DNA of 64,000 nucleotides from a virus, in IMG/VR virus record IMGVR_UViG_3300045988_131126. One strand, 5' to 3'. Below, in pieces: positions 28,380-49,757 of the stretch (positions are counted from its first letter, which is position 1; each line of letters begins with the position of its first letter). Position numbers and translations under genes: made by a program. The notes beneath the pieces were generated by a model, which worked only from the letters and a program-made list of their open reading frames with translations, ran no database searches and had not been told where the DNA came from.

Positions 28380-29462
28380 TTAGATATTAAAACAAAAACA
28401 AACTCCGTTGCTGGTACTGCTGCCGTCGGGGGTGGGGCCACCATTGTAGTTGACAGCAAAGAAGCCATCGGCACCGTTGCCGTAATAAGGCGAACGAGTC
28501 CACCACATACTAGCATCTCCACTTCCATTATTCATTTTCTTTATTCTAGAATTATTATCTGTAAATATAGGAAACTTTTTCTGATTTGTTTCTGTTGGAT
28601 TTTGATAGGGCCAATCATTGTTGTTAACTTCTGTTGATCCAGGTAAAAATACTATATCTTTAGAAAGTTTACCAGCGTTGGATGATGTACTGCCACCTCC
28701 TATATTAGCGTATGTATTTACTTCTTTAATTACGTTTTGTAAATCAGTAGGCATACTATTATAAATATTAATCATAACAATTTTCTTCATAGCCGTATTA
28801 TTCCAACCACCGGAGTTAGCATTGGAAGTATTCATATACTGTTTATTCTCCATTAAGTTTTTCATACCAAAACATATGCCTGCTTTGCCAGATCCATCGG
28901 ATTTAACAAAATGATTAAAATCCCATATCTGCAAAGTAACGGTTTCATTAAATGATCCTGATAAAGTTAAATCTATTTCGTCTCCAACTTTCCATAAAGA
29001 AGAAGCTACACCTGATTCACTGATGGCTGCTATTTGTTCCCATGTATTATTCTTCAATACAGGATCGGCAGCCAATACTTTTATAGCGTATATCATACTA
29101 GTACTATCGTTATATACTTTATCAGTACTTAATGTATAAAATCTATAATAATAAGTTTTTCCTACAGTTACATTAGAATCTGTATATGGAGTACTAGAAT
29201 ATTTATTTTTAGTAGTATTAGTTAATACTACAGTACCATCTTTAATACTAGTAGGAGCGCTGCCCTCTTTTCTTACTATAATAGTAGAACTCCAAGTAGA
29301 TAAAGTACTACCATTATAAACAGAAGTATTAGGATCGGTCCATTTTAATTTTACATATTTATTTCCAGATACAATATATATATTAGTTACATCTCCAGGA
29401 GGAAATCCTTTGGATGAAGATCCAGATCCTCCTCCACTTATATTTCTCATTATTACGCTCAT
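28380..29462 (-). CDS. FN3-like / C-terminal GVCFCF family protein (paralog of the DGR target) with a GC-rich VR-like tail
   Basis: 360 aa. Full-length similarity to 42698..43771 (KGFPPGDVT..KWTDP.., NNTWEQIAA.., TLQIWDFNHF.KSDGSGKAGI.FGMK, FPIFTDNNSRIKK.NNGSGDA..WWTRSPYYG...GVCFCFNI). Confidence 0.85.
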   Translation of the reverse strand: MSVIMRNISGGGSGSSSKGFPPGDVTNIYIVSGNKYVKLKWTDPNTSVYNGSTLSTWSSTIIVRKEGSAPTSIKDGTVVLTNTTKNKYSSTPYTDSNVTVGKTYYYRFYTLSTDKVYNDSTSMIYAIKVLAADPVLKNNTWEQIAAISESGVASSLWKVGDEIDLTLSGSFNETVTLQIWDFNHFVKSDGSGKAGICFGMKNLMENKQYMNTSNANSGGWNNTAMKKIVMINIYNSMPTDLQNVIKEVNTYANIGGGSTSSNAGKLSKDIVFLPGSTEVNNNDWPYQNPTETNQKKFPIFTDNNSRIKKMNNGSGDASMWWTRSPYYGNGADGFFAVNYNGGPTPDGSSTSNGVCFCFNI

Positions 29463-33337: not shown

Positions 33338-35116
33338 ATGGGTGCTATACTTGATAAATATATTAATCAGCTTCAGTCCTGGCTTGGTTATAATGAAGCC
33401 GATGGTACAGATGATATTATTATTAAAACATATAATAGTCAACGCCCATCTGGATCGTACAAAATGTCAATGGATGATCCTTGGTGCCATGCTACTATAT
33501 CAGCAGCTGCATATAAAGTAGGTATTTCTGGAACTATTATTCCTAATACTTGCTATTGTCCGGATGGTATAGATTGGTTTAAATCTAAAGGACAATGGGT
33601 AGGCAGAAACAGCTCTAAATACAACCCTATACGTGGAGATATTATCTACTATGATTGGGGCGGAGATGGAGAATCTGATCATGTAGGAGCAACAGTATCT
33701 AAAGATGGAAATACACTTCAAGTACTTGAAGGTAATAAATCTGATAAGTGCTGTTATAGATATATAGATCAATATGATAGTTGTATCATGGGATATGGTA
33801 GACCAGACTATGATGGTAACGGTGGTAATACAGGTTCTACTAAAGAAGATAGAAACTGGTTACAAGAAGGTGATTCTGGTAATGATGTACTAGAAATGCA
33901 GAAAAAATTAAAAGCTATAGGCTATAGTATAGATGTAGATGGAGAATGGGGTCCAGCCACAACTAAGGTAGTAAAACAATTCCAAAAAGATAACGATCTT
34001 AATGTAGATGGTGGATTCGGTGAGTTAAGTTCAGCTAGACTTAATGTATTATATAATAATAAGCAAACTACAGTTACTCCTACTACAGATTATATAGGCA
34101 AATATGTAAAAGAGTTTGAATCTGGAAATGCTGGTCCTACATCTATCGAACATTGCGGAGATGATGGTGGATTATCATATGGTACATATCAATTTATTTG
34201 GTCTTATGATAATGAGCCTGGATCTGCTCAGAGATTCTGGGATAAATACTATGCTAATACTTATGGTAAAGCTACCTCTTATGCAGATCTTAAAAATAAA
34301 TGGTTAAAAGCAGTAAAAGCTGATAAGAAAACATTTATTGATAATGAATGGGAATATGTATTAGATGGTGGAGAATATTATTCTCAAATGATTAGTACTT
34401 TAAAAGGATATTTTAATCCAAATACATTCTCTAGAGCAATGCAAGATTGTTGTTGGTCTTGGTCTGTTCATAGAGGTGGATATGGTGCTGCTACAGAGTT
34501 TAAGAAAGCTTGCGCTGCTGCTGGAATAGATGATCCACAGAAAGCAAAAGAAAAAGACTTATTAGCAGCTTGCTATGATTATAGATGGAAACATATTACT
34601 TATAACGGTAAGAGATTGACCAGATATTCACCAGATGGTGGAGAAGATAGCGAATATGTAACCATTCAAACTAAGATAGGACTTAAGCCTATAGATTATA
34701 TTACTCCTAGCGGTAAATTGATCAAGAAAGTTACTACCGGAAATAATACTAGTACAGATAAACCAAGTTCTTCTGATACTAAAAAAGAAAGTACTGCTGA
34801 TTTAGAAGCTTGGCAAAAGAAATGGTTAATGTCTGTACAGAAAATAGTAGGTGTAAAAGCTACTGGAATATACAATAAAGATATATTACACTATATTACT
34901 ATCTTAGATACAGGTTCTAAAGGATCATTAGTTAAAAAGCTTCAGGAGAAATTGATTCATCTTCAATATACCGAAGATCCTATAACAGGAACATATGATT
35001 CTAATACAAAGAAACTTGTAAAAGAATATCAAAAGTGGCATAGTATTACTGCTAATGGAGTTTGTAATATAGAAACTTGGGAGCAGTTATTATCAAAAAG
35101 AAAAGGTATAAAATAA
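33338..35116 (+). CDS. multidomain endolysin (CHAP/NlpC-like + PG-binding + lysozyme-like + PG-binding)
   Basis: DPWCHATISAAAY...DHVGATV...LEGN gives a Cys/His CHAP-type pattern. GDSGNDVLEMQKKLKAIGYSIDVDGEWGPATTKVVKQFQ and SKGSLVKKLQEKLIHLQY...TGTYDSNTKKLVKEYQ are PG_binding_1-like. The central FESGNAG...GGLSYGTYQF is a possible muramidase core. Confidence 0.7.
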   Translation: MGAILDKYINQLQSWLGYNEADGTDDIIIKTYNSQRPSGSYKMSMDDPWCHATISAAAYKVGISGTIIPNTCYCPDGIDWFKSKGQWVGRNSSKYNPIRGDIIYYDWGGDGESDHVGATVSKDGNTLQVLEGNKSDKCCYRYIDQYDSCIMGYGRPDYDGNGGNTGSTKEDRNWLQEGDSGNDVLEMQKKLKAIGYSIDVDGEWGPATTKVVKQFQKDNDLNVDGGFGELSSARLNVLYNNKQTTVTPTTDYIGKYVKEFESGNAGPTSIEHCGDDGGLSYGTYQFIWSYDNEPGSAQRFWDKYYANTYGKATSYADLKNKWLKAVKADKKTFIDNEWEYVLDGGEYYSQMISTLKGYFNPNTFSRAMQDCCWSWSVHRGGYGAATEFKKACAAAGIDDPQKAKEKDLLAACYDYRWKHITYNGKRLTRYSPDGGEDSEYVTIQTKIGLKPIDYITPSGKLIKKVTTGNNTSTDKPSSSDTKKESTADLEAWQKKWLMSVQKIVGVKATGIYNKDILHYITILDTGSKGSLVKKLQEKLIHLQYTEDPITGTYDSNTKKLVKEYQKWHSITANGVCNIETWEQLLSKRKGIK

Positions 35117-35676: not shown

Positions 35677-35806
35677 TTTTATACATCCTTTCTTAATAAC
35701 GTTATTAATTATTTAATTGTTTGGGCTAGGCAAAATTTAAAAATAAAATACACTATACATATAAGTAATTGAGGACGTTTAAGTCTATTAATTTATTTCC
35801 TTTTTT

Positions 35807-35878
35807 GGACATTTAGCTAAGGGGTACAGCATTCGGCTCATAACCGAAAGATCCGGGGTTCGAATCCCTGAATGTCCA
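35807..35878 (+). tRNA. tRNA with CAT anticodon (Met, or Ile2 if lysidine-modified)
   Basis: Cloverleaf read by eye: acceptor GGACATT/AATGTCC, anticodon stem TTCGG/CCGAA with loop CTCATAA, T arm CGGGG-TTCGAAT-CCCTG. 72 nt. Confidence 0.8.
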
Positions 35879-35942
35879 TTTAAATAATAGCATAGCTTTT
35901 TAAAGCTATGCTATATCTTTTTTGGAAAGGAAATGAAAAATT

Positions 35943-37329: not shown

Positions 37330-37830
37330 TTAATCACAATGTAAAACAATATTTCCGGTATCGATAGTTTTTCTTACATTAATAACTCTTTGGTTAGATG
37401 ATCCTCTCCATTTTAAAGATGTATCTCTAAACTTTTCTATATATGGACCATCTATAATTACATCTATTTTATTTAAAATTCCGATAGGCACAAACTTCTT
37501 AAGATCATTAAAAGTATATCCTGTATATAACCATACAGTTTTATTAGGATAAACAGATTTAATGTATTCTATAAGTTCGTACACTTCTTCTCTATTACTT
37601 TCAAATAACGGATCACCGCCAGAGAAAGTAATACCAGAAATATAATCTTGAGATACGATATCTAATAATTCTTTTCTAGCATTTTCATCAAATAAAATAC
37701 CATCATCAGGATCCCATGTTACAGGATTTTGACAGTTAGGACAATGATGAGAGCATCCAGCTACCCATAACACAACTCTTAATCCATCTCCGTTTTTCAT
37801 GTCATCCTTTGTAATATTATGATAATTCAT
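37330..37830 (-). CDS. nrdG: anaerobic ribonucleoside-triphosphate reductase activating protein (radical SAM)
   Basis: GDGLRVVLWVAGCSHHCPNCQNPVTWD is a CxxxCxxC cluster in the typical NrdG context. 166 aa, the typical length. Confidence 0.8.
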   Translation of the reverse strand: MNYHNITKDDMKNGDGLRVVLWVAGCSHHCPNCQNPVTWDPDDGILFDENARKELLDIVSQDYISGITFSGGDPLFESNREEVYELIEYIKSVYPNKTVWLYTGYTFNDLKKFVPIGILNKIDVIIDGPYIEKFRDTSLKWRGSSNQRVINVRKTIDTGNIVLHCD

Positions 37831-37846: not shown

Positions 37847-38713
37847 TTATCTTAATTTAATACATAGCCCCTGTACAGATGTAACTATTCCTACATGTAC
37901 TGTCATTTTTCCTGTTTCTGATACATATGTATCTCCAGCATTATATGCAGTAGCTTTCCCGTCCAAGGTTTTAATTCTTGATTTATCATCTGTATAAATA
38001 TCAGAATCTAAAGCATCGTTATATTGGTTTAATACACATTTCATATCATCAGGCATAGCTTCTACTAAGTCTTCTGGTAATGTATTTTGTATATTAACTA
38101 CGTTATCATTAATAAGATCCATAGATTGTAATGTAAGTTCGCATCTGTAAAAGTCTTTATCACATTCAAATCTATTAAGTTTATTTTTCTTAATATTGGT
38201 TATCACAAGAGATAATGTTTTATTTATGGTTCCACCAAGAGTAATATTCTTAGTATCTCCTACTAACCATTTCTTTTCAGCGCATCCATTTTCTATAGTA
38301 GTGATAATGGCTTCCCAAGTATTATTCTTAAATACAGGATCTACATCTATAGTCTGTATCTTAATAATATCCACTTTATCCCATGAATGTTTTCCTAAAT
38401 CAGAGCACGGAATAATAGCGTAATAATATGTAGTATTAGGTTCTACAGAGTCATCTACAAAGTATTTATCTTTGTATTCATTACGATCATATATCTCTGT
38501 AATGATCTCCCCATCCCAAGTATCTTTAGGAGGTTCATCTTTCTTTCTAATAATTCTTGTAAATTCCCATTTAGAGAAATAAATTTTATCAAGTATCGGA
38601 TCAACCGGATCGGTCCATTTTAAAGAAACAGAATTTGCAGTAACATCTATGTCGATATTCGTAGCAGGACCAATCGGATATTGTTTTGTATATCGTTTAA
38701 TAGAATCATCCAT
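37847..38713 (-). CDS. FN3-like family paralog lacking the C-terminal VR-type domain
   Basis: ATG 38713 follows AAAAGGAGA. VSLKWTDPVDP, YYYAIIP, NNTWEAIITTIENGCAEKKWLVGDTKNITLGG parallel the DGR-target family. The C-terminus is unrelated. Confidence 0.65.
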   Translation of the reverse strand: MDDSIKRYTKQYPIGPATNIDIDVTANSVSLKWTDPVDPILDKIYFSKWEFTRIIRKKDEPPKDTWDGEIITEIYDRNEYKDKYFVDDSVEPNTTYYYAIIPCSDLGKHSWDKVDIIKIQTIDVDPVFKNNTWEAIITTIENGCAEKKWLVGDTKNITLGGTINKTLSLVITNIKKNKLNRFECDKDFYRCELTLQSMDLINDNVVNIQNTLPEDLVEAMPDDMKCVLNQYNDALDSDIYTDDKSRIKTLDGKATAYNAGDTYVSETGKMTVHVGIVTSVQGLCIKLR

Positions 38714-38802
38714 TTTGAAAATCTCCTTTTCGATTATAAGTATTATATTAAAGTTCAAAATATAATAAAAATAGAGGAAGAGCCAAAACTCTTCCTCTAG
38801 AA

Positions 38803-39087
38803 TTATCCAAAAATACTCTCTATAATTCCAACAACAACGCCAATCAATACAATGACAAATATTGCCATCCATACAATAAATGATACACCTATCGCTATTT
38901 TCATTGAATATATACATATGACATATAGAACACCGTTTAAGCATTTATCTGCATAATTCATCATATATGGTATAGTATATTTATATAGGTATGGAATAAG
39001 CAATCCAAATACTGGTATTGATAATGGAACGAATAAAATACATAATAATCCTAATACAGAATTATTGCTCAGAAGCTTCTTCATCAT
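38803..39087 (-). CDS. small multi-pass membrane protein
   Basis: 94 aa with three hydrophobic segments. Confidence 0.5.
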   Translation of the reverse strand: MMKKLLSNNSVLGLLCILFVPLSIPVFGLLIPYLYKYTIPYMMNYADKCLNGVLYVICIYSMKIAIGVSFIVWMAIFVIVLIGVVVGIIESIFG

Positions 39088-39203: not shown

Positions 39204-40022
39204 TTAATAAGCCTCCTTAATAATTTCTTTAAGTAAATTTGCTGGATATGATGAAATCTTTGCACATGTTGATGCATCTACACTGTTTCTATCACGAATT
39301 AATTCTGCTGTATCGTCTTTGAATTTTAATAAGATAGATTCGATAGCTTTTAATGTCTCACTCTTATTCATTTTATTCATCATAACGTGCTTCACGTATG
39401 TTGTTACTACTGAAAGATTTCTGCCTCCGTCTATTGACCATACAGCAATATTTTTTAACTGTTTACAAATTTCAGAATATTTTTCTTTTGAAAAATCTTC
39501 TCTGTCTTTATCTATTCTTCTTAATATTTCTTTTACTGCATCGTAAGATACAGATTTTTTATCTATAGAAACTCTATTTATATATCGTTTTATTCTTATT
39601 CCTTCATCTACTGCAATATTTATAGCAATTATATTAAAATGCTCTACAAGTAATTTATTATTATCAAATTGCAATAAACCGTCTAATGTAGTGATTCCGA
39701 TATATGTATTTTCACAACGTTTTTCTACACCTAATAACTCTGGCGGTACAAGGTTAGTATAGAATACTGTTGTTAATTCTCCTTTATTATTATACATTTC
39801 ATAGGATCTCGGATCTATTTTTTCATATGACGGTATAGCACTATACTGATCAAATGTATTAAAGACAATATCAGGATCCCCGGTTTCATCTTCTCTAGAC
39901 TCTCTGGTTGTGCATAATCGAAGTTTCTTAATTGATGGGATCGAGTGTACAATTTGGTTTAAAATACTGTCCTTCCCTGAACAGGAAGGACCGATTAATA
40001 ATATTAATGTGTTCTTTTGCAT
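39204..40022 (-). CDS. P-loop nucleotide/nucleoside kinase-like protein
   Basis: LLIGPSCSGKDS Walker A near the N-terminus, as in guanylate-kinase-like proteins. AAGGAGG RBS. Confidence 0.5.
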   Translation of the reverse strand: MQKNTLILLIGPSCSGKDSILNQIVHSIPSIKKLRLCTTRESREDETGDPDIVFNTFDQYSAIPSYEKIDPRSYEMYNNKGELTTVFYTNLVPPELLGVEKRCENTYIGITTLDGLLQFDNNKLLVEHFNIIAINIAVDEGIRIKRYINRVSIDKKSVSYDAVKEILRRIDKDREDFSKEKYSEICKQLKNIAVWSIDGGRNLSVVTTYVKHVMMNKMNKSETLKAIESILLKFKDDTAELIRDRNSVDASTCAKISSYPANLLKEIIKEAY

Positions 40023-40087
40023 ATTAATTTCCTCCTTATTTTTCTATTAATGTAAAGTTTTGACAATTATAAAAATAAAACAAAGAC

Positions 40088-40116
40088 ACCCATGTATGTC
40101 AGGATCATACATGGGT
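40088..40116 (-). terminator. terminator closing the DGR operon
   Basis: ACCCATGTATG-loop-CATACATGGGT, followed on the minus strand by GTCTTTGTTTTATTTTT. Confidence 0.6.
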
Positions 40117-40122
40117 AAAAAA

Positions 40123-40389
40123 TCATCTATTGGAATTGGTTAAACCTAAAGGACCAGATTGAAACGGTGTTCTTATATTAACTACAGGATCTGTTCCGTC
40201 TATACGTACAGATAAATTATTATTTTCGTCTATTTCCATAATAAGAAGATATACCTCCCCTGTACATTGATCTTTAAATTTTTTCTTATTTTCTCCGGGC
40301 CACAATTTATAAGCTATCCCTAATTCACAAGCCTCTCTTATACTATACCATGTGTTTTTATCAAATTCTTTGTGAAATACATTTTCCAT
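40123..40389 (-). CDS. small protein resembling the central segment of the DGR-target family
   Basis: KNTWYSIREACELGIAYKLWPGENKK compares with NNTWEQIKAASEGDAIPSTWKVGDEIN. It is the last gene before the terminator. Confidence 0.5.
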   Translation of the reverse strand: MENVFHKEFDKNTWYSIREACELGIAYKLWPGENKKKFKDQCTGEVYLLIMEIDENNNLSVRIDGTDPVVNIRTPFQSGPLGLTNSNR

Positions 40390-40431
40390 ATTATTTTCTC
40401 CTTTTATCTATAATATTTTTAATATAAGGTT

Positions 40432-41646
40432 TTAGGGCAAATAAAAACATATACTGTGTGGGGACAGTATATGTGTGAAATTATAGTATGGTGTGTTAGT
40501 GTTATAATAATCATATCCATTTATAAATGGATCAATAAATAATTCGTTAAATAGTTTATCAAGGCTCATAATAGAAGTATAACACATACCTCTACGCTTT
40601 ATAGAACCTTTCCAAGACTTATATGCATTTAGAATTTGATCGAAAGTCATTTTACCAATATCCATTAAATGTCTAAACTTTTTAAGTCTTCTTCTTTCTC
40701 TTGTAATAGTTTTATTCACAACCCTTTTAACAACTTTACCAGTTTCGGTAAGTCTAAATCGAGTTTTTAAGAATGTAAATTGTTTAGATATTTTCTGTAA
40801 TCTACATTTCTTTTCACTGAAAGATAATCCAAGTTTAGTGGCAATTTGTTTTACACCTTGTATTACTTTCATTAAGTATTTCTTAGAATGATGTATAATA
40901 ATACCATCATCCATATATCTATCATATCCATGCACTCTCATTTGATCTTTTACATAATGATCTATTGGATTTGGATAATATACAGCGCTTATTTGTGATA
41001 TTTCACTTCCTAATCCTAAACCAATTTTACCAAATGCATAAATAAAAGTTTCTACATACTTCATTACATGATCAAATATAAGCTTACTCCTTTCAGCTTC
41101 TACTAGAGCATGTAATGGAATACTTCCAAAATAATCATGAAAATCAAACGTATAAATCCATCCTTTAAGACCATATTTCTTATAATGATCTTGTAAATGC
41201 TTAACTACACGTTTAATTTGATGATGCGGACCTCTACCTTTTAAAGTAGCTCCATTATCATAAATTAAGTAAGGTCTCAATACAGGAGTGATGCAATTTT
41301 TCACAAAAGATTTTTGCACTACACGTTCTTCTATAGTAATACTCTTTATATGTCTTAATTTACCTCTCTCCTTAATATCAAAACAATGGAATCCTCTTGG
41401 AGTAAATGATCCAGTATAACATTCTACGATTAAGTCTGGAAGATTAGTCGAAATAAATATACCGTAGCGTTGTACTATGGCTTTCCAATCAGTTCCTGCT
41501 TTACAAAATTTATACGATTCATATAATGCAGATTCAGAGAATACATCATTAAGATTGGAATGCTTTCTAGCAAGTTCCATTCTCTTTGCCAATCTCTTAG
41601 CTTTTCTTCTCTGATATCTAGCTTCGTGTCTTTCTTTGCTATTCAT
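40432..41646 (-). CDS. DGR reverse transcriptase
   Basis: FDFHDYFGSI (motif A), GLGLGSEISQISAVYY (motif B with the DGR-typical SQ), YMDDGIIIH (YxDD), FTFLKTRF. Confidence 0.9.
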   Translation of the reverse strand: MNSKERHEARYQRRKAKRLAKRMELARKHSNLNDVFSESALYESYKFCKAGTDWKAIVQRYGIFISTNLPDLIVECYTGSFTPRGFHCFDIKERGKLRHIKSITIEERVVQKSFVKNCITPVLRPYLIYDNGATLKGRGPHHQIKRVVKHLQDHYKKYGLKGWIYTFDFHDYFGSIPLHALVEAERSKLIFDHVMKYVETFIYAFGKIGLGLGSEISQISAVYYPNPIDHYVKDQMRVHGYDRYMDDGIIIHHSKKYLMKVIQGVKQIATKLGLSFSEKKCRLQKISKQFTFLKTRFRLTETGKVVKRVVNKTITRERRRLKKFRHLMDIGKMTFDQILNAYKSWKGSIKRRGMCYTSIMSLDKLFNELFIDPFINGYDYYNTNTPYYNFTHILSPHSICFYLP

Positions 41647-41911
41647 AATTTATTTTTAACTAGAAAATTTAGGTGCTGTGAACAGAGAGATCTACCATGA
41701 AATACATAAAGTACCATGCAAGAAGCGTCCGGTAGCTCCCATCAGCTAATTTAGAAGTTCTAGTTATATTGACCTCCTAAACACATCTATTTATTTAATA
41801 CTCTAAACGAATATTAAAATGGGTAAATAATCTCCTTCTGCAAGGAAATTTTGTTAATCTAAAGATTTCGCACTATAGATAGTGTTACTGTGTCGCTCAT
41901 AACAACTCTTA

Positions 41912-42019
41912 CAGAATCAGAAGCACACGCCATTGCTGTTGCTGGCATTGTTGTTGTTGTTGCTACCGTCCGAGTTGACATTACAGAAGTTGTTGGTGTT
42001 GTTGTAATTAGGCGAACGA
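41912..42019 (-). repeat. DGR template repeat (TR)
   Basis: Non-coding, AAC/AAT-rich on the minus strand. Aligns without gaps to 42705-42812 with 17 mismatches, 16 of them at TR adenines. Confidence 0.9.
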
Positions 42020-42061
42020 AAAAGGTTTACAGATTATTCCCCTTGTAAAACATAATATTTA

Positions 42062-42562
42062 TTAAGCTACAAATTTAACGATTTTACTATTTTGAACTTG
42101 TGTTTGTGTATTACAAATAGCTCGAGTATCTTTAAATCTCTTTTCATCACTACGAATAATCTTTTCTAAAGTATTAATTTCTTTATTTAACAAACTTAAC
42201 CATGTGTTTAAATCGGAATCTCTGACAGAAACTAATGGTGAATTTTCACCATTATCAACTTCATGCTTTATATAAAGCAATGCTGATATATCTGCAGAGA
42301 TTGAACAAGCTACTCCTTTAGCTTGTAAAAGGAATTGTCTCCTCATTGCAAAATCTTCTTTATATTTAATAGGAAATATAGAATTTCCCTGTATACATAA
42401 ATTATTTAAACATCTAGCTTTCTCCAATAATGGATGAGCTATCATGTAAGTATATCTTTTAGGCATTGATAGACATATACGAAGCGCCAACTTATACAGT
42501 TTAAAAGCATCGTATACGAATTGTGCACTAGATAGGTTTCTTTCACCTGCTGGCACACTCAT
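42062..42562 (-). CDS. avd: DGR accessory variability determinant (Avd-like helical protein)
   Basis: 166-aa basic helical ORF between the target gene and the TR, the position Avd occupies in BPP-1-type DGRs. Confidence 0.7.
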   Translation of the reverse strand: MSVPAGERNLSSAQFVYDAFKLYKLALRICLSMPKRYTYMIAHPLLEKARCLNNLCIQGNSIFPIKYKEDFAMRRQFLLQAKGVACSISADISALLYIKHEVDNGENSPLVSVRDSDLNTWLSLLNKEINTLEKIIRSDEKRFKDTRAICNTQTQVQNSKIVKFVA

Positions 42563-42637
42563 ATCAAATCTCTCCTTTCTTTTGTATACTTTAATAAAAA
42601 GTTAGGGTTATCAAACCTTACAAGAAAAAATAAAAGG

Positions 42638-42665
42638 GTTGGTGGATCTGTACAGATCCACCAAC
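42638..42665. promoter_or_regulatory. GC-rich hairpin/cruciform 3' of the VR (putative DGR target-recognition element)
   Basis: GTTGGTGGATC-TGTACA-GATCCACCAAC, a perfect 28-bp palindrome 33 nt after the target stop codon. Confidence 0.6.
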
Positions 42666-42697
42666 GATGGATTTGCTCGACAAGCTCGCAAATCTGA

Positions 42698-43771
42698 TTA
42701 TACGCAGAAGCAGAAGCACACGCCACCGCTGAAGCTGGCATAGTTGTAGTTGTATCTACCGTCCGAGTAGACACTACAGAAGTCGTAGGTGCTGCCGTAA
42801 TAAGGCGAACGAGTCCACCACCAATAAGCATCTCCACTACCATTATTCAGTTTCTTTATTCTAGAATTATTATCTGTAAATATAGGAAACTTTTTCTGAT
42901 TAGACTCAGTATTAGACTGGTATGTAAAACCAACTTCTGTACAACCAGGCAAAAATACTTTATCTTTAGAAGGTCTACCAGCGTTGGACGATGAAGTACC
43001 ACCACCTAAATTGGCATATGTGTTTACTTCTTTAATATAAGACTGTAAATTGGAAGGCATACTTTTGAAAATATTCTGCATAACAGTTTTCTTCATATCT
43101 GTATCATTCCAACCGCCAGAGTTAGTATCAGAACTATTCATTTGTCGAGTATTCTTCATTAAATGCTTCATTCCAAATACTATACCAGCTTTACCAGATC
43201 CATCAGATTTATCAAAGTGTTTGAAATCCCAAATCTGTAAAGTAACAGTCTCATTAAAAGTTCCTGATAAGGTGATATTAATTTCATCTCCAACTTTCCA
43301 TGTGGATGGAATAGCATCACCTTCACTAGCAGCTTTTATTTGTTCCCATGTGTTATCTTTCAATGTGGGGGCAAAGGACAATGGTATGGCAGCAAAAATC
43401 AAGTTGCTAGAATCGTTGTATACTTTGGCAGTATTATATGGGAAGAATCTATAATAATACTTATGGTTATTCGTTAAGCCCGAATCTGTATACCAAGTAT
43501 TCTTATATTTATCCCTTGTAGTGTTGTCTAGTACTACATCGCCATCCTTAATAGATTCAGGATAGTGATCAGCATTACGTATTAATAAAGTTCCTTTCCA
43601 AGCAGATATAGTAGTCCCGTCAACTACTGTATCTTTTGGATCGGACCATTTGATTAATACTCTACCGTTATTTACGGTTGATGAGATAGAGGTTACATCG
43701 CCCGGGGGAAATCCCTTGGAAGAAGATCCAGAGATCGTGGCAGATGCTCCACCTCTTACAATAACACTCAC
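42698..43771 (-). CDS. DGR target protein (FN3-like N-terminus, variable C-terminal ligand-binding domain)
   Basis: 357 aa. GTG start 9 nt after AAAGGAGG. The VR occupies the last ~36 codons. Confidence 0.9.
   Translation of the reverse strand: MSVIVRGGASATISGSSSKGFPPGDVTSISSTVNNGRVLIKWSDPKDTVVDGTTISAWKGTLLIRNADHYPESIKDGDVVLDNTTRDKYKNTWYTDSGLTNNHKYYYRFFPYNTAKVYNDSSNLIFAAIPLSFAPTLKDNTWEQIKAASEGDAIPSTWKVGDEINITLSGTFNETVTLQIWDFKHFDKSDGSGKAGIVFGMKHLMKNTRQMNSSDTNSGGWNDTDMKKTVMQNIFKSMPSNLQSYIKEVNTYANLGGGTSSSNAGRPSKDKVFLPGCTEVGFTYQSNTESNQKKFPIFTDNNSRIKKLNNGSGDAYWWWTRSPYYGSTYDFCSVYSDGRYNYNYASFSGGVCFCFCV
42705..42812 (-). repeat. DGR variable repeat (VR) with IMH-like 3' end
   Basis: Encodes RSPYYGSTYDFCSVYSDGRYNYNYASFSGGVCFCF. 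The A-free GGCGTGTGCTTCTG is identical to the TR. Confidence 0.9.
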
Positions 43772-44072
43772 TATATAAAACCTCCTTTATTTTTATTAAT
43801 TACATATCTCAAACCTATTTACCAAAATTTTCCAATTAATTACCAAATATTTTTCCAAAAAAATGGAAAAATTTACTAATTAATTAAAATATTTATTTAC
43901 ATAAAGATAAAGGGGCTGAAGAACTATGTAATTTATTACATAGTTCTTCAGGTAATTTTATAAAAAATAAAAAAGATTTTTTAAAATTTTATATAGAAGA
44001 AGATGGATATACCATATGGTATATCCATCTTTATTTTTATATAGTTTACAATGAATACTTATGATATCTATA

Positions 44073-44594
44073 TTATTCTCGCTTATCTTCTATGGACATT
44101 GCTTTTACTTTCTTATCTATATCTTCATATGTCATACCTGTTAATTCTGAATACTTATCTTTTAATTTATTATAGTTATTCATATATTCATCTGCTTTTT
44201 CGGAATGATATTTGCTTGATTCATAAGCATTTACTATACCTTTGAATAAACATAATTCTTTATTATATAAGTATTTTGATGGAATATAAGCAAATGTCAT
44301 AAGTGTTGGAGATTCAATCTGTACATCTTTTCCTTCTATGAATATTTCTTCTCTGGGAATACCAGCTATATTAGATTGGTTATATGGAACTTTGGTATAT
44401 AAATTTAAAGAGAATAAAGGAACAAAATCTTTTTCTGTCTCTTCGTTATATTCCAATGTAATTAGACTTTCTGTACTCTGCATTAAATTGTCTGTAATAA
44501 GTTTAAAGTTCCATTTACAATTATTAATTATTGGTTTTCCATTAAAACAAATAGGTTCGTGTTTAAATATCATTCTATCTTTGTAATTATACAT
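44073..44594 (-). CDS. hypothetical protein
   Basis: 173-aa ORF with AAGGAGAAATAA RBS. Confidence 0.6.
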   Translation of the reverse strand: MYNYKDRMIFKHEPICFNGKPIINNCKWNFKLITDNLMQSTESLITLEYNEETEKDFVPLFSLNLYTKVPYNQSNIAGIPREEIFIEGKDVQIESPTLMTFAYIPSKYLYNKELCLFKGIVNAYESSKYHSEKADEYMNNYNKLKDKYSELTGMTYEDIDKKVKAMSIEDKRE

Positions 44595-44624
44595 TATATT
44601 ATTTCTCCTTATCTTTTTAGTATA

Positions 44625-44954
44625 TCAATTTTCAGAAAAGCCAAGTAAATCATATCCTAACTGACAGAAATAATTCTTTCCTATAACTGAAACAAATTCT
44701 TCTAAAGATGTAATATATGCAGTTGGTTCAGAATACTCTACTGGTACATAAAATCTTTTGGCACACTTCGCATTATCCCATAATATATCATCAATATATG
44801 AAACAGATAACTTTTTGGCTTTGTCTATAATTTTACATGATAATGTATTCATTCTGGTTAAAGATAACTTCTTATCATTTTTCGAAATGATTATATTCTC
44901 TCCGTAGTCTCTATCAGTTATGATAATAAAGTCGTCAGGTATACTATAATGCAT
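44625..44954 (-). CDS. hypothetical protein (paralog set D, short member)
   Basis: FIIITDRDYGENIIISKNDKKLSL motif shared with the two upstream genes. Confidence 0.55.
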   Translation of the reverse strand: MHYSIPDDFIIITDRDYGENIIISKNDKKLSLTRMNTLSCKIIDKAKKLSVSYIDDILWDNAKCAKRFYVPVEYSEPTAYITSLEEFVSVIGKNYFCQLGYDLLGFSEN

Positions 44955-44988
44955 TTGTACTTTGACTAATGGCTCCTTATGAGCTAAT

Positions 44989-45453
44989 TTACTTACTAAT
45001 TGTAAAATTTGATGGTTTTATCATTATCGTTATCGTGCTTACATTACAAGAACTTTCGGTCAATTTTATTGTTCCAAAGTCTAAGTAAGTTAAATTATCA
45101 TCTCCGATAGCGTCGGATAATGCAAGTGTATCTACTACGTAAACTGCGGCTTTTGAAAAATAAGTCGTATCGTCTTTAATATGAAATAATATTGTAATTT
45201 CATTACAAATGCTTGATGTAAGAGTATCACACGATATAGTCACTTGTCTCATATTATTTAAAATGATATTGGATTTTATATCAATTTTAGATAGTATAAC
45301 ATCAGATTTTTCGCCATGAATTTTTATTTTATCTCCATAATCTTTATCTATTATTACAAGTACGTATTCTCCCACAAGTTTAACAAATGATTTCGTTGGT
45401 AAGGTTTCTCTTTCTGTCAGATTGGCTGGTTTAAATAATTTGAAAGTTGTCAT
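44989..45453 (-). CDS. hypothetical protein (paralog set D)
   Basis: YVLVIIDKDYGDKIKIHGEKSDVILSKIDIKSNIILNN. Confidence 0.6.
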   Translation of the reverse strand: MTTFKLFKPANLTERETLPTKSFVKLVGEYVLVIIDKDYGDKIKIHGEKSDVILSKIDIKSNIILNNMRQVTISCDTLTSSICNEITILFHIKDDTTYFSKAAVYVVDTLALSDAIGDDNLTYLDFGTIKLTESSCNVSTITIMIKPSNFTISK

Positions 45454-46196
45454 GATTTATTTTCCTCCTCTTCATCTGAAGTTGACATAAGTTTTATATT
45501 AAATTTATTTAATAAATCAATAAACAGTGGAATGTGGTTGTGCCTAAAAGCTCTTAATAAGATACAGATATCTGCATTGCTTTCTGGTAACTCTTCTCCA
45601 ATGATGTATTTATTCATTAATCTACCTAAGAATACTCTTGCATCTTCAGTATTATCAAAAGTTAAAGCATTCTTTATTTGCTCTTTTTCTAATGGTAACT
45701 TTGCAAATGAGATTCCTGGTAATTTGCTAGGATCTTTATAGTTCTCATCAACTAAAATTACATATCTATCATTATCAAAAGTTATACAGTACTTTTGATC
45801 GTTATCTATAACCAAGTAATAGAATCCATTTATGAAAAACATACTATCATCAGCAGTAAGAATTTCGAATATATTCGATATTGAAGTACAATATACTGTA
45901 GCGTTTTTATATTCTTCTTTTGGAGTACAAATAATATCAAGTTCTCTTGGCGGATTCACATCAAGTGGTTTAAATTTAATATGTCTTTTATTATTTAAAA
46001 TAAAATTGTCGGCATCGTTTACTCTGCGAAAATCTACAGATGTCATATAACCTATCATTTTTAATGATATAGTATCGCCGTAATCATGATTTAATATTAA
46101 GAAGATATAATTTCCTTCATAGAAAAACCGTGATTTAATAATATCTTCCTTTTTGTAACCTAATTTGGATCTAACTGCGCTAAATTGAATTTTCAT
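45450..46196 (-). CDS. hypothetical protein (paralog set D, long member)
   Basis: YIFLILNHDYGDTISLKMIGYMTSVDFRRVNDADNFILNN. ATGA overlap with the next gene. Confidence 0.6.
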   Translation of the reverse strand: MKIQFSAVRSKLGYKKEDIIKSRFFYEGNYIFLILNHDYGDTISLKMIGYMTSVDFRRVNDADNFILNNKRHIKFKPLDVNPPRELDIICTPKEEYKNATVYCTSISNIFEILTADDSMFFINGFYYLVIDNDQKYCITFDNDRYVILVDENYKDPSKLPGISFAKLPLEKEQIKNALTFDNTEDARVFLGRLMNKYIIGEELPESNADICILLRAFRHNHIPLFIDLLNKFNIKLMSTSDEEEENKS

Positions 46197-46270
46197 AATT
46201 TAATTTCTCCTTTATTAAATATATTTATATGTGTAAATCACAATTATAATATACAATAAAAGCAAAAATT

Positions 46271-46300
46271 ACCCAAGATACTATATATAGTATCTTGGGT
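46271..46300 (-). terminator. hairpin terminator immediately after 46308..47369
   Basis: ACCCAAGATACTATATATAGTATCTTGGGT, then AATTTTTGCTTTT on the minus strand. Confidence 0.55.
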
Positions 46301-46307
46301 TTTTATA

Positions 46308-47369
46308 TTATACATTGAAACAAAAGCACACACCATAGCCATAGCCGGCGCCGGTGTAATCGTGGGTACCGTATATAGTGACATCACAGAAACAGTCGGG
46401 GTTGTTTCCGCAAATAGGCGAACGAAGCCACCATTGATAAGCATCTCCACTACCATTATTCATTTTCTTTATTCTAGAATTATCATTTGTGAATATAGGA
46501 AATTTTTTCTGGTTTTTCTCAGTTTCAGATTGATCTGGTTTATAATTTTTACCAAACATTTCTGTCATACCAGGTAAAAATACTTTATCTTTAGATAATA
46601 ACCCTGTACTAGAAGATGAACTGCCCAAACCTTGATTGGCATATGTGTTTACTTCTTTAATATAAGACTGTAAATCAGAAGGTATACTATTATAAATATT
46701 AACCATAACAGTTTTCTTCATAGCTGTATTATTCCAACCTCCAGAGTTAGTATGAGAACTATTCATGTATTGTCCATCTTTCATTAAATTTTTCATTCCA
46801 AATACTATACCTGCTTTACCACCACCATCGGATTTATCAAAATGATTAAAATCCCATATTTGTAATGTAATAGTTTCATTAAAAGTACCACTAAGCGTTA
46901 AATCTATTTCATCTCCAACTTTCCATATAGAAGAAGCTATACCAGCTTCAGAAGCAGTATTTATTTGTTCCCATGTATTATTCTTTAATATAGAGTCTAT
47001 GCCATAAAATGTATTTTCAACAATCATATTTATATTATTATTACATAATTTATTAGTATCGTATGCAAAAAATCTATAATAATATTTTTTGTTTTTAATT
47101 ACATCACTATCTGAGCATGTGGTTCCATTTCCACTATATATAGTATTCCCATCTTTAATACTCGTCGGATAACGGCTTTCATTTCTTACTATTATTACAT
47201 GATCAAATGTAGATAGCGTAGTTCCGTCTATAACTACATTAGATGGATTAGTCCATGATAATATAATAGAAGAAGCATTTTGAGAAGCTTTTATATTAGT
47301 AACTTCTCCCGGCCCTATTCCTTTATTATTAGAAGAACTAATATTATTTCCTTTTAATATAATACTCAT
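46308..47369 (-). CDS. DGR-target family paralog with a GC-rich VR-like tail
   Basis: 353 aa, ending in QWWLRSPICGNNPDCFCDVTIYGTHDYTGAGYGYGVCFCFNV. Confidence 0.85.
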   Translation of the reverse strand: MSIILKGNNISSSNNKGIGPGEVTNIKASQNASSIILSWTNPSNVVIDGTTLSTFDHVIIVRNESRYPTSIKDGNTIYSGNGTTCSDSDVIKNKKYYYRFFAYDTNKLCNNNINMIVENTFYGIDSILKNNTWEQINTASEAGIASSIWKVGDEIDLTLSGTFNETITLQIWDFNHFDKSDGGGKAGIVFGMKNLMKDGQYMNSSHTNSGGWNNTAMKKTVMVNIYNSIPSDLQSYIKEVNTYANQGLGSSSSSTGLLSKDKVFLPGMTEMFGKNYKPDQSETEKNQKKFPIFTNDNSRIKKMNNGSGDAYQWWLRSPICGNNPDCFCDVTIYGTHDYTGAGYGYGVCFCFNV

Positions 47370-47417
47370 AATATATCCTCCTTTGTGTGAGGACTATAAA
47401 AGATATATTATGAGAAA

Positions 47418-48497
47418 TTATACATTAAAACAAAAACATACACCACCAGAAACGTCTGCATTATAACCATGCACATACCCTGCGCCATTATAAAACATAT
47501 TTCCATCATAGTCTACAAATATAACTATATTTGTCTCGTTTTCTTCCGTAGATCTTAAAAACCAATCGTTATTGACACCAGATCGTTTTTTTATTCTAGA
47601 ATTTTTATCTGTGAATATAGGAAATTGGGTCTGTCCAGCTTCTGTGTTATATTGTTCAGAAGACCATTTTCCGAATACTTCTATAGATCCTGGTATAAAT
47701 ACTTTATCTTTTGATAAAGTTCCTTTTTCAACTTTACCTACATAGGTATAATTTTCATTAGCATATGTATTGACTTTTTTTAATACATTTTGCAAATCTA
47801 TAGGCATACTGGAGATTATTTTAGGTATATAAGTTGTTCTCATCGTACACGAACTCCAATAAGGATATTCTAAGCAATTCTCTTCTTTCATTAAGTTCTT
47901 CATACCAAATACTATACCTGCTTTTCCACTACCATCAGATTTATCAAAATGATTAAAATCCCATATCTGTAAAGTAATAGTTTCATTATATGTACCAGAT
48001 AAAGTAATATCTATTTCATCCCCTATATTCCATATAGAAGAAGCTATACCTGACTCACTAGCAGCTGCTATTTGTTCCCATGTATTATTCTTTAATATAG
48101 GATCAAATTCTACTACAGCAGCGCTATATATCATACCACTATCATTATTATATATTTTATCAGTATTACAAACAAAAAATCTATAATAATAAGTATCTAT
48201 CTCTAAATTATTATCAGTATATTCAGTATTTTTATATTTATTTTTCTCTGTAGTTTCTAATACTATATCTCCATCTTTAATACTTGTAGGAATTGATCCT
48301 TTTTTACGTACTAATGTAGTAGATTGCCATGTAGATAATGTTTTATCTCCAATTACTACATCATCAGGATCTGTCCATTTAATGGTTACTTTTTTATTTC
48401 CGCCTTTGATAGTTACATTAGTTACATTTCCCGGAGGATATCCTTTGGATGATCCTCCTCCACTTGAACTATCTATTCTTTTTATTAAAACGCTCAT
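47418..48497 (-). CDS. DGR-target family paralog with a degenerate, AT-rich C-terminal domain
   Basis: 359 aa, ending in NDWFLRSTEENETNIVIFVDYDGNMFYNGAGYVHGYNADVSGGVCFCFNV. No TR similarity. Confidence 0.85.
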   Translation of the reverse strand: MSVLIKRIDSSSGGGSSKGYPPGNVTNVTIKGGNKKVTIKWTDPDDVVIGDKTLSTWQSTTLVRKKGSIPTSIKDGDIVLETTEKNKYKNTEYTDNNLEIDTYYYRFFVCNTDKIYNNDSGMIYSAAVVEFDPILKNNTWEQIAAASESGIASSIWNIGDEIDITLSGTYNETITLQIWDFNHFDKSDGSGKAGIVFGMKNLMKEENCLEYPYWSSCTMRTTYIPKIISSMPIDLQNVLKKVNTYANENYTYVGKVEKGTLSKDKVFIPGSIEVFGKWSSEQYNTEAGQTQFPIFTDKNSRIKKRSGVNNDWFLRSTEENETNIVIFVDYDGNMFYNGAGYVHGYNADVSGGVCFCFNV

Positions 48498-48518: not shown

Positions 48519-48646
48519 AATGTGGGGAGCACAAACAAAATCAGTAATTACCCTCTATATAACAAGTTTATTTATAAACTTGTTATATAGAGGTCTTTTT
48601 AACGTATATGAACGTATTACTATAAAATTATATAACTTTTGTCCCC
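48519..48646. promoter_or_regulatory. divergent control region: central 42-bp palindrome flanked by TCCCC motifs on each side
   Basis: Palindrome 48552-48593 (CCTCTATATAACAAGTTTATTTATAAACTTGTTATATAGAGG). CTCCCCACATT (reverse complement) at 48519-48529. TTGTCCCC at 48639-48646. Confidence 0.55.
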
Positions 48647-48662
48647 GGAACAGGAGTATATA

Positions 48663-49757
48663 ATGAGTATTTTAATAAAAGGAATAAGCAACTCAAGTGG
48701 ATCATCTAAAGGGTTTCCTGTAGGAAATGTAACCAATGTATCTATATATTATTTAAATAGTAAAGTATATATTAAGTTTTCTGATCCGAATAATACCGTA
48801 GAAAATAATATTACTTTATCCACTTGGTATAGTACTATTATAGTAAGAAAAGAAAATAGTATTCCTACTAATATTAAAGATGGAGATATAATATTAGAAA
48901 ATATTATTAAAGATAAATACAAAGAAACTGATTTTATCGATACAAATATAGAGATCAATCGTACTTATTATTATAGATTTTTTGTTTGCAATACTGATAA
49001 AATATATAATAATAGTAGCGATATGATATATAAAGTAGAAACAAAAAATATAGATAGTAATATAAAAAACAATACATGGGATCAGATAAGCAAAGTTTCA
49101 GAATTAGGCTTAGCTTCTTCTATATGGAAAGTTGGGGATGAAATTAATATTAAATTATCTGGTACATATAATGAAACTATTACTTTACAAATATGGGATT
49201 TTAATCATTTTGATAAAAGTGACGGTAGCGGTAAAGCAGGTATAGTATTCGGAATGAAAAACTTAATGAAAAATACAGATTATATGTCTAAAACTGCAGG
49301 ATATGGAAATGAGGACGGATGGGGAAGCTCATATATGAGAAAAACTGTAATGAATAAAATATATCAATCTATGCCAGATGAAATAAAACCCAAAATTAAA
49401 CAAGTCCATATAGAATCAACAAGAGGCGGCAGTACAGGGGAAGGCGCAGGTATTGGTGTACCTACAGATGACTATATATTTTTACCGGGAAAATGTGAAG
49501 CTTGCTATAGTAAGTCTGAATCGCAGTCAAATTTCCAAAAACGATTCCCTATATTTACAGATGATAGTTCTAGAATAAAGAAATTATCCAATGGTAGCAA
49601 AGCCGTTGAAAGCTGGTGGGTGAGGGATGCTGATGATAGTTATTACACGGCCTATAATTGCATAACAACTGCGGGAAGTACGTCTACAATGTATGGAAAT
49701 CCAAATGGATCTTTTACTGCGTATAAAGCAGGTGTTTGTTTTTGCTTTAATATATAA
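48663..49757 (+). CDS. DGR-target family paralog (plus strand) with a non-TR-like C-terminus
   Basis: The ORF track starts at TTG 48639. ATG 48663 follows CAGGAG and gives MSILIKG, like the other paralogs. Ends in SWWVRDADDSYYTAYNCITTAGSTSTMYGNPNGSFTAYKAGVCFCFNI. Confidence 0.8.
   Translation: MSILIKGISNSSGSSKGFPVGNVTNVSIYYLNSKVYIKFSDPNNTVENNITLSTWYSTIIVRKENSIPTNIKDGDIILENIIKDKYKETDFIDTNIEINRTYYYRFFVCNTDKIYNNSSDMIYKVETKNIDSNIKNNTWDQISKVSELGLASSIWKVGDEINIKLSGTYNETITLQIWDFNHFDKSDGSGKAGIVFGMKNLMKNTDYMSKTAGYGNEDGWGSSYMRKTVMNKIYQSMPDEIKPKIKQVHIESTRGGSTGEGAGIGVPTDDYIFLPGKCEACYSKSESQSNFQKRFPIFTDDSSRIKKLSNGSKAVESWWVRDADDSYYTAYNCITTAGSTSTMYGNPNGSFTAYKAGVCFCFNI

Follow-up and report, generated by a model that had tools for sequence, protein, structure and literature searches.

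A diversity-generating retroelement with an RT-2 spacer RNA in a jumbo phage of the human gut

In the diversity-generating retroelement (DGR) of Bordetella phage BPP-1, the lectin-like target gene mtd carries the variable repeat (VR) in its last codons and is followed by avd, which codes for a helical accessory protein, by a non-coding template repeat (TR) rich in AAY codons, by a structured spacer RNA and by brt, the gene of the reverse transcriptase (RT); the VR closes with a GC-rich initiation of mutagenic homing (IMH) element with a hairpin after it, and the difference between IMH and its TR counterpart, IMH*, gives homing its direction. Here we describe an element of the same plan in a stretch of 64,000 nucleotides of viral DNA (IMG/VR record IMGVR_UViG_3300045988_131126; the window, meaning this whole stretch), which is part of a ~273.9-kb human-gut contig belonging to a phage of ~274 kb. 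We consider it highly probable that the element is a functional DGR, arranged on the minus strand in the order target(VR)-avd-TR-spacer RNA-RT, and the cassette, as judged by comparison with related genomes, is complete, genuine and evidently active. DGRs are very common in gut phages, a gut-virus catalogue reporting tens of thousands of them (PMC8241571), so that the existence of one in the window is unsurprising. The features of the cassette, in the direction of its transcription except for the small elements lying within or beside a gene, are as follows.

42698–43771, minus strand: target gene, 357 amino acids (aa), GTG start according to the open reading frame (ORF) listing; FN3-like N-terminal part and DUF6273 C-terminal part
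42705–42812, minus strand: VR, the last 36 codons of the target, a 108-nt ungapped match to the TR
42705–42724, minus strand: IMH, consisting of the GC-rich GGCGTGTGCTTCTG (42711–42724), then C (42710; the TR has A), then TTCTG
42670–42694, minus strand: small hairpin, a candidate target-recognition hairpin, with a 7-bp stem and an 11-nt loop, 10 nt downstream of the IMH
42624–42665, minus strand: intrinsic terminator of the target gene (hairpin 42665–42638), a 12-bp stem and a T run
42062–42562, minus strand: ORF of 166 aa, divergent Avd-like protein, predicted four-helix bundle
41912–42019, minus strand: TR, non-coding and AAY-rich, 108 nt with 35 A; IMH* at 41912–41931
41651–41895, minus strand: spacer RNA, Rfam RT-2 (RF03077), from cmscan and, for the 5′ domain, our own model R1
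40432–41646, minus strand: DGR RT, 404 aa, with GSEISQ and YMDD
40447–40474, minus strand: terminator-like hairpin with a T run, overlapping the last ~15 RT codons and upstream of the 88-aa ORF
40123–40389, minus strand: small ORF, 88 aa
40087–40117, minus strand: terminator-like hairpin closing the operon

The coordinates that an initial annotation, made from the letters of the DNA, had given for the target, the Avd-like ORF, the RT, the small ORF and the TR/VR pair all agree with the ORF listing and with direct reading; the gene order is identical to mtd-avd-TR-brt, as had been claimed, and the spacer put at about 265 nt measures 265 nt. The closing terminator, placed at 40116 to 40088, does form a hairpin, and its extent here is 40117–40087. 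The TR is intergenic, lying 43 nt past the avd stop codon and 265 nt ahead of the RT, i.e. a non-coding repeat that adjoins the RT gene. The likeness to BPP-1 thus extends from gene order to the position of the VR in a putatively lectin-like target, the AAY-rich non-coding TR, the GC-rich IMH followed by a hairpin, the Avd-type helical protein between VR and TR and the structured RNA between TR and RT. The differences are that the similarity of the two RTs is low, that the Avd-like protein has 166 aa and is not detectable by sequence, that the spacer is an RT-2 RNA and the BPP-1 motif is RT-10 (PMC5737381), that the target combines FN3 and DUF6273 and is not Mtd, and that the genome carrying the element is that of a ~274-kb phage with an AT-rich host, probably of the Bacillota.

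The evidence for adenine-specific mutagenesis begins with the two repeats. When the 108-nt TR was slid over both strands of the whole window, and compared by blastn as well, 42705–42812 was the only strong repeat of it in the 64 kb (blastn E 3e-29), and the same comparisons, searched for a second TR, gave only the one. The two align without gaps over 108 nt with 17 mismatches, 16 of them at an A of the TR and one a C→A change (AGC→AGA, 42755), and the hypergeometric probability that at least 16 of 17 mismatches would fall on the 35 A among 108 nt is 1.1e-8. The A-bias asserted in the initial annotation was in this way reproduced computationally; the TR and VR peptides that it quoted are exact on translation, and its IMH-like, A-free common 3′ end is the 14-mer GGCGTGTGCTTCTG, identical in both repeats. 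Its count of sixteen A mismatches is right as a count, but the 3′-most of them, an A/C difference just 3′ of GGCGTGTGCTTCTG (TR A 41917, VR C 42710), is fixed in six of six genomes compared and is therefore not a product of mutagenesis, which leaves 15 mutagenic A mismatches in the window. We read this position as a fixed IMH*/IMH difference, which may serve as a discriminator beside the IMH; that the IMH would act as a homing boundary is likewise suggested by its counterpart in BPP-1. In the target frame, 34 of the 35 TR adenines fall at codon positions 1 or 2, distributed over 14 AAY and 6 single-A codons, so that no stop codon can arise, and the theoretical repertoire amounts to 4^34 (about 3e20) DNA sequences and 15^14 x 4^6 (about 1.2e20) protein sequences. 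The VR positions that actually vary span about 42726–42802.

We retrieved the cassette from five further genomes (L003, L004, L005, L007, whose VR was recovered again on contig L008, and L009); the variation data come from assemblies of different samples and not from the reads of a single one. All TR/VR mismatches in these genomes are at A sites (L003, 14/14; L004, 15/15; L005, 17/17; L007, 15/15; L009, 17/17). The window, L003 and L004 share an identical TR, and the VRs of these three and of L006 differ pairwise at 16–23 positions, every one of them a TR-A position except for the C→A of the window. In particular, the TR of L007 has six substitutions and all six appear in its own VR, which shows a flow of information from TR to VR. 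In an alignment of six cassettes, per-site diversity is highest in the VR (0.18–0.22) and among the lowest in the TR and spacer (0–0.03). At the protein level, the exact target protein occurs in public data on contigs of 272.6–274.1 kb, in keeping with the large phage proposed in the initial annotation, and falls in a 90%-identity cluster of 51 sequences. In an alignment of the 15 listed members of this 51-member cluster, which comprise 14 distinct sequences, variation is concentrated at residues 324–349, and column entropy averages 1.90 bits for the 20 residues encoded by TR codons with A in position 1 or 2; the other 13 residues of the VR average 0.08 bits, and the 319 residues that make up the rest of the target average 0.06 bits. 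The population test that had been proposed, a search for variation restricted to the VR, was therefore positive in both respects, in column entropy and in the TR-A differences between genomes with the same TR. Taken together, the aligned genomes show a one-way flow from TR to VR, adenine-specific randomization, and confinement of the variation to 20 codons.

Other features of these genomes were recorded beside the VR. The target gene has a second, lower diversity peak outside the VR, at 42900–43190 on the minus strand (0.09–0.17 per site); the differences there are shared by lineage, a pattern that suggests ordinary divergence or recombination and not the work of the DGR. Two assemblies break beside the VR, L001 starting 23 nt past it (at the equivalent of window position 42682) and the L006 contig (273,042 bp) ending 34 nt beyond the target stop codon, as is expected of a hypervariable or repeated site. 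In L007 substitutions are found on both arms of the stem of the target-gene terminator. The hairpin at 42670–42694 is invariant across six genomes, and the DNA fold of 42610–42730, the stretch that holds it, gave z = -4.6; a role in target recognition may be proposed by analogy with BPP-1. A search of IMG/VR with a degenerate pattern derived from the TR gave no match (the jumbo phage itself is absent from that collection), nor did megablast of 40000–47500 against GenBank phages, and a sigma-70 promoter scan returned fewer sites than in shuffled sequences and was uninformative.

The RT is recognized by Pfam as RVT_1 (E 2.6e-14) and by PHROGs as phrog_1423 (E 1e-62), and its best match among solved structures is bRT of BPP-1 (8ub7_A, E 4e-11 over residues 27–329), in an alignment that takes in IGLGLGSEISQ against VGIPIGSLTSQ as well as the YMDD box; Drt3a (6.5e-5) and a group II maturase (0.007) are lesser matches in the PDB. 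The DGR-typical motifs reported in the initial annotation, GxxxSQ (motif 4, here GSEISQ) and YMDD, are both present, and L210–G213, S214, Q218, D246 and D247 are invariant in 20 homologues. More than 1,300 RT homologues were found in metagenomes. An alignment-based scan of IMG/VR yielded 80 loci at 39–46% identity, and in 64 of them the RT is closely preceded by an A-biased TR/VR pair (at least 86% of mismatches at A); the sequence available upstream is shorter than 1.2 kb at 11 of the 16 loci with no such pair. The nearest RT of a cultured phage is that of Roseburia phage Shimadzu (45% identity), followed by Faecalibacterium phages, and the RT clade in GTDB is found mostly in Lachnospiraceae, Oscillospiraceae, Christensenellaceae and other Clostridia, with no close relative of the RT among GTDB genomes.

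Between TR and RT, Rfam RT-2 (RF03077) matches 41651–41815 on the minus strand with 53.2 bits against a gathering threshold of 40 (cmscan, E 1.3e-10); the match ends where the start codon of the RT lies, and the spacer of the window retains intact the conserved core GAUG...CCGGACGCU.CUUGCAUGG...UUUCAUGG. The 5′ domain was placed poorly by cmscan and was located with a model of our own, R1, made from 29 related RT-2 RNAs, using their 5′-most 70 nt, and restricted to sequence because RNAalifold, run on a MAFFT alignment of RT-2 5′ domains, gave no consensus pairs. R1 has a single match in the whole window, at 41828–41895 (E 0.0076), about 17 nt after the TR, where the conserved GACA.AGUAAC...GCGAAAUC...CAGAAGGAGA is found; the RT-2 RNA of the jumbo phage therefore fills the whole spacer. 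It carries a ~75-nt insertion (about 41752–41827) and is without a 34-nt subhairpin. RT-2 was present between TR and RT in all 32 loci scanned (53–158 bits): in 30 distant DGR loci it scores 78–158 bits and extends from a point 0–8 nt past the TR to where the RT begins, and in the sister genomes L003 and L009 it scores 53–55 bits, like the window. The window spacer can be regarded as a reduced and expanded variant of the family. Moreover, the spacer hardly varies, even in L002 with its many nucleotide substitutions in avd; folding the whole TR-spacer RNA by minimum free energy gave a value like that of shuffled sequences (z = -0.9). The paper that defined the RT motifs (Weinberg et al., 2017; PMC5737381) tied only RT-10, the motif of the BPP-1 element, to a DGR, the others being a matter of speculation, and our search of the literature found no paper linking RT-2 to DGRs. 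From its position in these loci, RT-2 is the TR-adjacent spacer RNA of a large Clostridia-associated DGR clade, and by analogy it may serve as RNA scaffold and priming element for RT and Avd.

The 166-aa ORF between VR and TR has no direct match in Pfam, NCBIfam or, by phmmer, in the PDB, and profiles of 24- and 91-member alignments of its family also found none in the PDB; in PHROGs its only match is a weak one to the unannotated phrog_30516 (E 3e-4), and a word-based search returned only ten close homologues. AlphaFold2 (AF2), from a shallow alignment, predicts a four-helix bundle (pLDDT 82; helices 5–32, 35–61, 68–101 and 115–157), for which the top PDB matches in Foldseek are 2gsc (TM 0.81–0.85 by target) and the bAvd chains of the DGR ribonucleoprotein structure (8ub7_B-E, TM 0.75–0.80), with weak E values of 5e-3 to 0.7; helical bundles are common. 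In related DGR loci the ORF between VR and TR encodes a protein of 110–160 aa that aligns with that of the window, and the family shares an MSV start, PKRYT[FY], [AG]NSI[FYW]P, RR and a C-terminal K.D..R.K (in the window PKRYTF, ANSIYP and RR). An exhaustive profile search extended it to 272 clusters at E<=1e-3, and when 91 members were compared with Pfam, the only families hit by more than two of them were PF05635 (seven members, best 2.7e-6) and PF22296, bAvd-like (seven members). Relative to its homologues the window protein has a 15–20-residue loop insertion (about residues 104–118) and a longer C-terminus. Considering its position, the predicted four-helix fold and the transitive family links, we conclude that the ORF encodes a divergent Avd. 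What the initial annotation had called an Avd-like helical ORF is borne out in fold and position but not in direct recognition as Avd by sequence; the place of an Avd or equivalent accessory protein is thus occupied on grounds of position and fold, with a sequence link that is transitive only.

In the target, Pfam identifies DUF6273 (PF19789, E 4.8e-20) at residues 207–356, and the AF2 model (pLDDT 87) has an FN3-like beta-sandwich at 27–128 followed by a globular domain. DUF6273 has been described as a C-type-lectin-like domain targeted by DGRs, and in Faecalibacterium phages its C-terminal end holds the VR (PMC10743442, PMC11792537). Foldseek matched FN3 domains, many viral DUF6273 proteins in BFVD, and 9qa6, a Thomasclavelia IgA peptidase with an N-terminal domain annotated DUF6273 (PMC12402451); the BFVD matches include a 'tail-collar fiber protein' and an FN3-domain protein of 'Myoviridae sp. 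ctcyQ27', to which UniRef also assigns a 221-aa fragment that is 100% identical to the target. On the BPP-1 paradigm, the target would be a virion adhesin or surface protein. Besides it the window encodes four full-length paralogues at 46–62% identity, so making a five-gene FN3-DUF6273 family, and one diverged partial copy:

28380–29462, minus strand: paralogue T2, 62% identical to the target
28390–28497, minus strand: apparently frozen VR-like end of T2, 65% to the TR, with an indel and 15 non-A mismatches
37847–38944, minus strand: diverged partial paralogue
46308–47369, minus strand: paralogue T3, full-length
46317–46426, minus strand: apparently frozen VR-like end of T3, 69% to the TR, with a 3-nt indel and 12 non-A mismatches
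47418–48497, minus strand: full-length paralogue
48639–49757, plus strand: full-length paralogue

T2 and T3 keep the VR scaffold RSP..FC.V..G..A..GVCFCF, and the ends of T4 and T5 have no similarity to the TR. The ends of T2 and T3 were considered as a second active VR in the window and rejected, since both carry indels and non-A mismatches and that of T3 is nearly static across six genomes. Judged from these alignments, only one copy of the target is currently diversified.

Two other explanations of the locus as a whole have to be considered. The RT might come from another kind of retroelement (group II intron, retron or defence RT), the TR/VR pair then being an ordinary repeat or the result of gene conversion between paralogues; indeed, the best matches in NCBIfam are sub-threshold ones to group II RT/maturase and Drt3a, and the phage has five paralogous targets that could recombine. 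However, NCBIfam ranks these families first because the library has no DGR model, and the scores are far below the family cut-offs (group II TIGR04416, 70 bits against 300; retron St85 NF038233, 24 bits against 235), the best solved match being bRT; an Rfam scan of 39900–44000 found RT-2 and neither a group II intron nor a retron RNA; and the TR is non-coding, while recombination does not yield mismatches confined to A (p 1e-8, with the same pattern in five more genomes). In addition, 64 of 80 homologous loci are DGR cassettes. The RT is not one of a group II intron or retron, an identity that the initial annotation had named as refuting its claim, and we regard this alternative as effectively refuted. 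The element could instead be a fossil, a DGR that once diversified the target and is now inactive, with VR differences that are old polymorphisms passed on by descent. That the VRs of this target family can freeze is seen in T2 and T3, the comparison uses assemblies only, and the VR of the window does hold one change that is not at A. Against this, the VRs of the window and L003 show 19 differences in 108 nt, all but one at TR-A, compared with 7 differences in the 900 nt that lie upstream; each of the 14 distinct target sequences among the 15 listed cluster members has a different VR; every genome compared keeps an intact and conserved RT, avd and spacer; and the TR changes of L007 are mirrored in its VR. 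We therefore consider a fossil very improbable and favour a functional DGR.

Several observations nevertheless weigh against a functional DGR, or against parts of it. One is the C→A difference at 42755 in the VR of the window. Activity, moreover, is deduced from differences between assembled genomes of different samples. The VRs of L005 and L009 exceed their cognate TRs by 3 nt (111 against 108 nt; L005:5959-6070 vs L005:6753-6861, L009:5971-6082 vs L009:6770-6878), a length difference not expected if the VR is simply replaced over its full length; the additional NNC codon falls within a run of four AAC, the TR of L002 has 111 nt (L002:450-561), and slippage of the RT on the AAC repeat, or loss of a TR codon after the last homing event, are possible causes. 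The assignment of Avd depends on the weak Foldseek E values and on the transitive links, the window protein matching no Avd model, and our own fold search with the target was dominated by FN3 matches and did not independently give its lectin fold. A narrower question is whether the 88-aa ORF, implied to be part of the element by the layout in the initial annotation, is a further accessory component. It has the same orientation as the RT, follows it at a distance of 42 nt, shares its terminator-bounded unit, and in most sister genomes is kept at a length of 88–93 aa. Nonetheless, it has no family match in Pfam, PHROGs or NCBIfam, its region 40273–40332 is a diversity peak, and it is cut to 38 aa in L007, whose TR/VR pair still shows 15/15 A mismatches; because of this truncation beside an otherwise intact DGR, we think it unlikely that the ORF is an accessory component and suggest that it is probably not part of the DGR. 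The T-run hairpin at 40447–40474 lies upstream of the ORF, which may for that reason be transcriptionally separate from the DGR.

If the functional DGR follows the BPP-1 paradigm, an RNA covering avd, TR and RT-2 spacer would be bound by the RT and the Avd-like protein, and the spacer, like the Sp region of BPP-1, would position and probably prime reverse transcription of the TR. The RT would copy the TR faithfully except opposite adenines, as is indirectly suggested by the fact that only TR-A positions differ between TR and VR and among VRs. The cDNA would then replace the VR in one direction, its 3′ boundary presumably set by the GC-rich IMH together with the fixed A/C difference, and the hairpin at 42670–42694 downstream of the IMH may aid homing. 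The outcome would be randomization of 14 AAY and 6 single-A codons at the tip of the lectin-like DUF6273 domain of a virion surface protein, and the likely purpose is to change the ligand or receptor that the phage binds on its Bacillota host.

Beyond BPP-1, the closest relatives are found in phages of gut Clostridia, where DGRs with this type of RT, Avd, RT-2 and DUF6273 target are abundant. The RTs of Roseburia phage Shimadzu, of the Faecalibacterium phages Pioen, Roos, Lelie, CP11 and Taranis, and of the 'tentaclin' phages nd4 and nd12 are 32–45% identical to that of the window, and the DUF6273 targets of Faecalibacterium phages have the VR at the C-terminal end of the domain as in the window (PMC11792537). 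Relatives of the RT clade in IMG/VR and GTDB (39–46%) have the same short 'MSV...PKRYTF...ANSIYP' Avd family and an RT-2 spacer. In contrast to the ~274-kb phage that bears the window element, the Clostridia DGR phages and contigs are mostly of 30–65 kb and often temperate, and it is with respect to them that the Avd-like protein and the spacer of the jumbo phage have gained their insertions and the spacer is without its subhairpin; likewise, RT-2 begins 0–8 nt after the TR in 30 of 30 distant loci, as against about 17 nt for the 5′ domain in the jumbo phage.

The remainder of the window provides some indication of the nature of this phage. The neighbouring genes include:

18315–20090, plus strand: GroEL; nearest cultured relatives AR9/PBS1/BpSp and Staphylococcus S6/MarsHill, 23–26% aa identity
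30768–32780: protein with a sigma-70 region 4 domain
33338–35116: endolysin, CHAP and PG_binding
35806–35879, plus strand: a single tRNA-Met (CAT) gene
37330–37830, minus strand: radical-SAM protein with Fer4_12, downstream of the DGR
39204–40022, minus strand: guanylate-kinase-like protein, directly downstream of the DGR
58242–59537, plus strand: virion structural protein; nearest cultured relatives AR9/PBS1/BpSp and Staphylococcus S6/MarsHill, 23–26% aa identity

Tail-fibre-like proteins are also encoded. The radical-SAM/Fer4_12 protein is possibly an NrdG-type activase, and the order of the kinase and radical-SAM genes downstream of the DGR is kept in all sister genomes, the guanylate-kinase-like ORF of L007 being split in two (159 and 103 aa). 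That the phage probably infects a Gram-positive host, as proposed in the initial annotation, is plausible, given its CHAP/PG_binding endolysin, the Clostridia clade of its RT and structural genes nearest to those of Bacillus and Staphylococcus jumbo phages; the host is probably a member of the Bacillota. AR9/S6-like jumbo phages have their own transcription apparatus, and their cultured members have uracil-containing DNA. From its GroEL and virion protein, and its similar genome size, the phage appears to be related to AR9/PBS1/Staphylococcus S6-MarsHill, albeit very distantly; it differs from them in that those phages have a retron-like RT and no DGR (10.1101/2020.12.14.422802).

Finally, considering the setting of the element, it is conceivable, although we hold the full scenario to be unlikely, that no DGR lineage of an AR9/S6-like jumbo phage has been described before this one, and that the element was acquired from temperate Clostridia phages, was remodelled by enlargement of the Avd and, in RT-2, by the ~75-nt insertion and the deletion of a subdomain, and now diversifies one of five FN3-lectin adhesins, the others being frozen. 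If it is true that the DNA of the phage contains deoxyuridine, retrohoming must act on, or produce, uracil-DNA. The added value of the finding is modest and lies in the jumbo-phage setting, the functional context for RT-2 and the family of active and frozen targets. A DGR is thereby documented in a ~274-kb phage whose nearest cultured relatives lack DGRs, in a textbook-clean cassette for which a natural variant series is already public, one protein cluster holding 51 variants. RT-2, so far an orphan motif of Rfam, gains a biological context and offers a second, independent RNA scaffold that can be compared with the Sp RNA of BPP-1 with regard to priming, and the paralogue family, with one active and several frozen members, represents a natural experiment on the fate of DGR targets after duplication.

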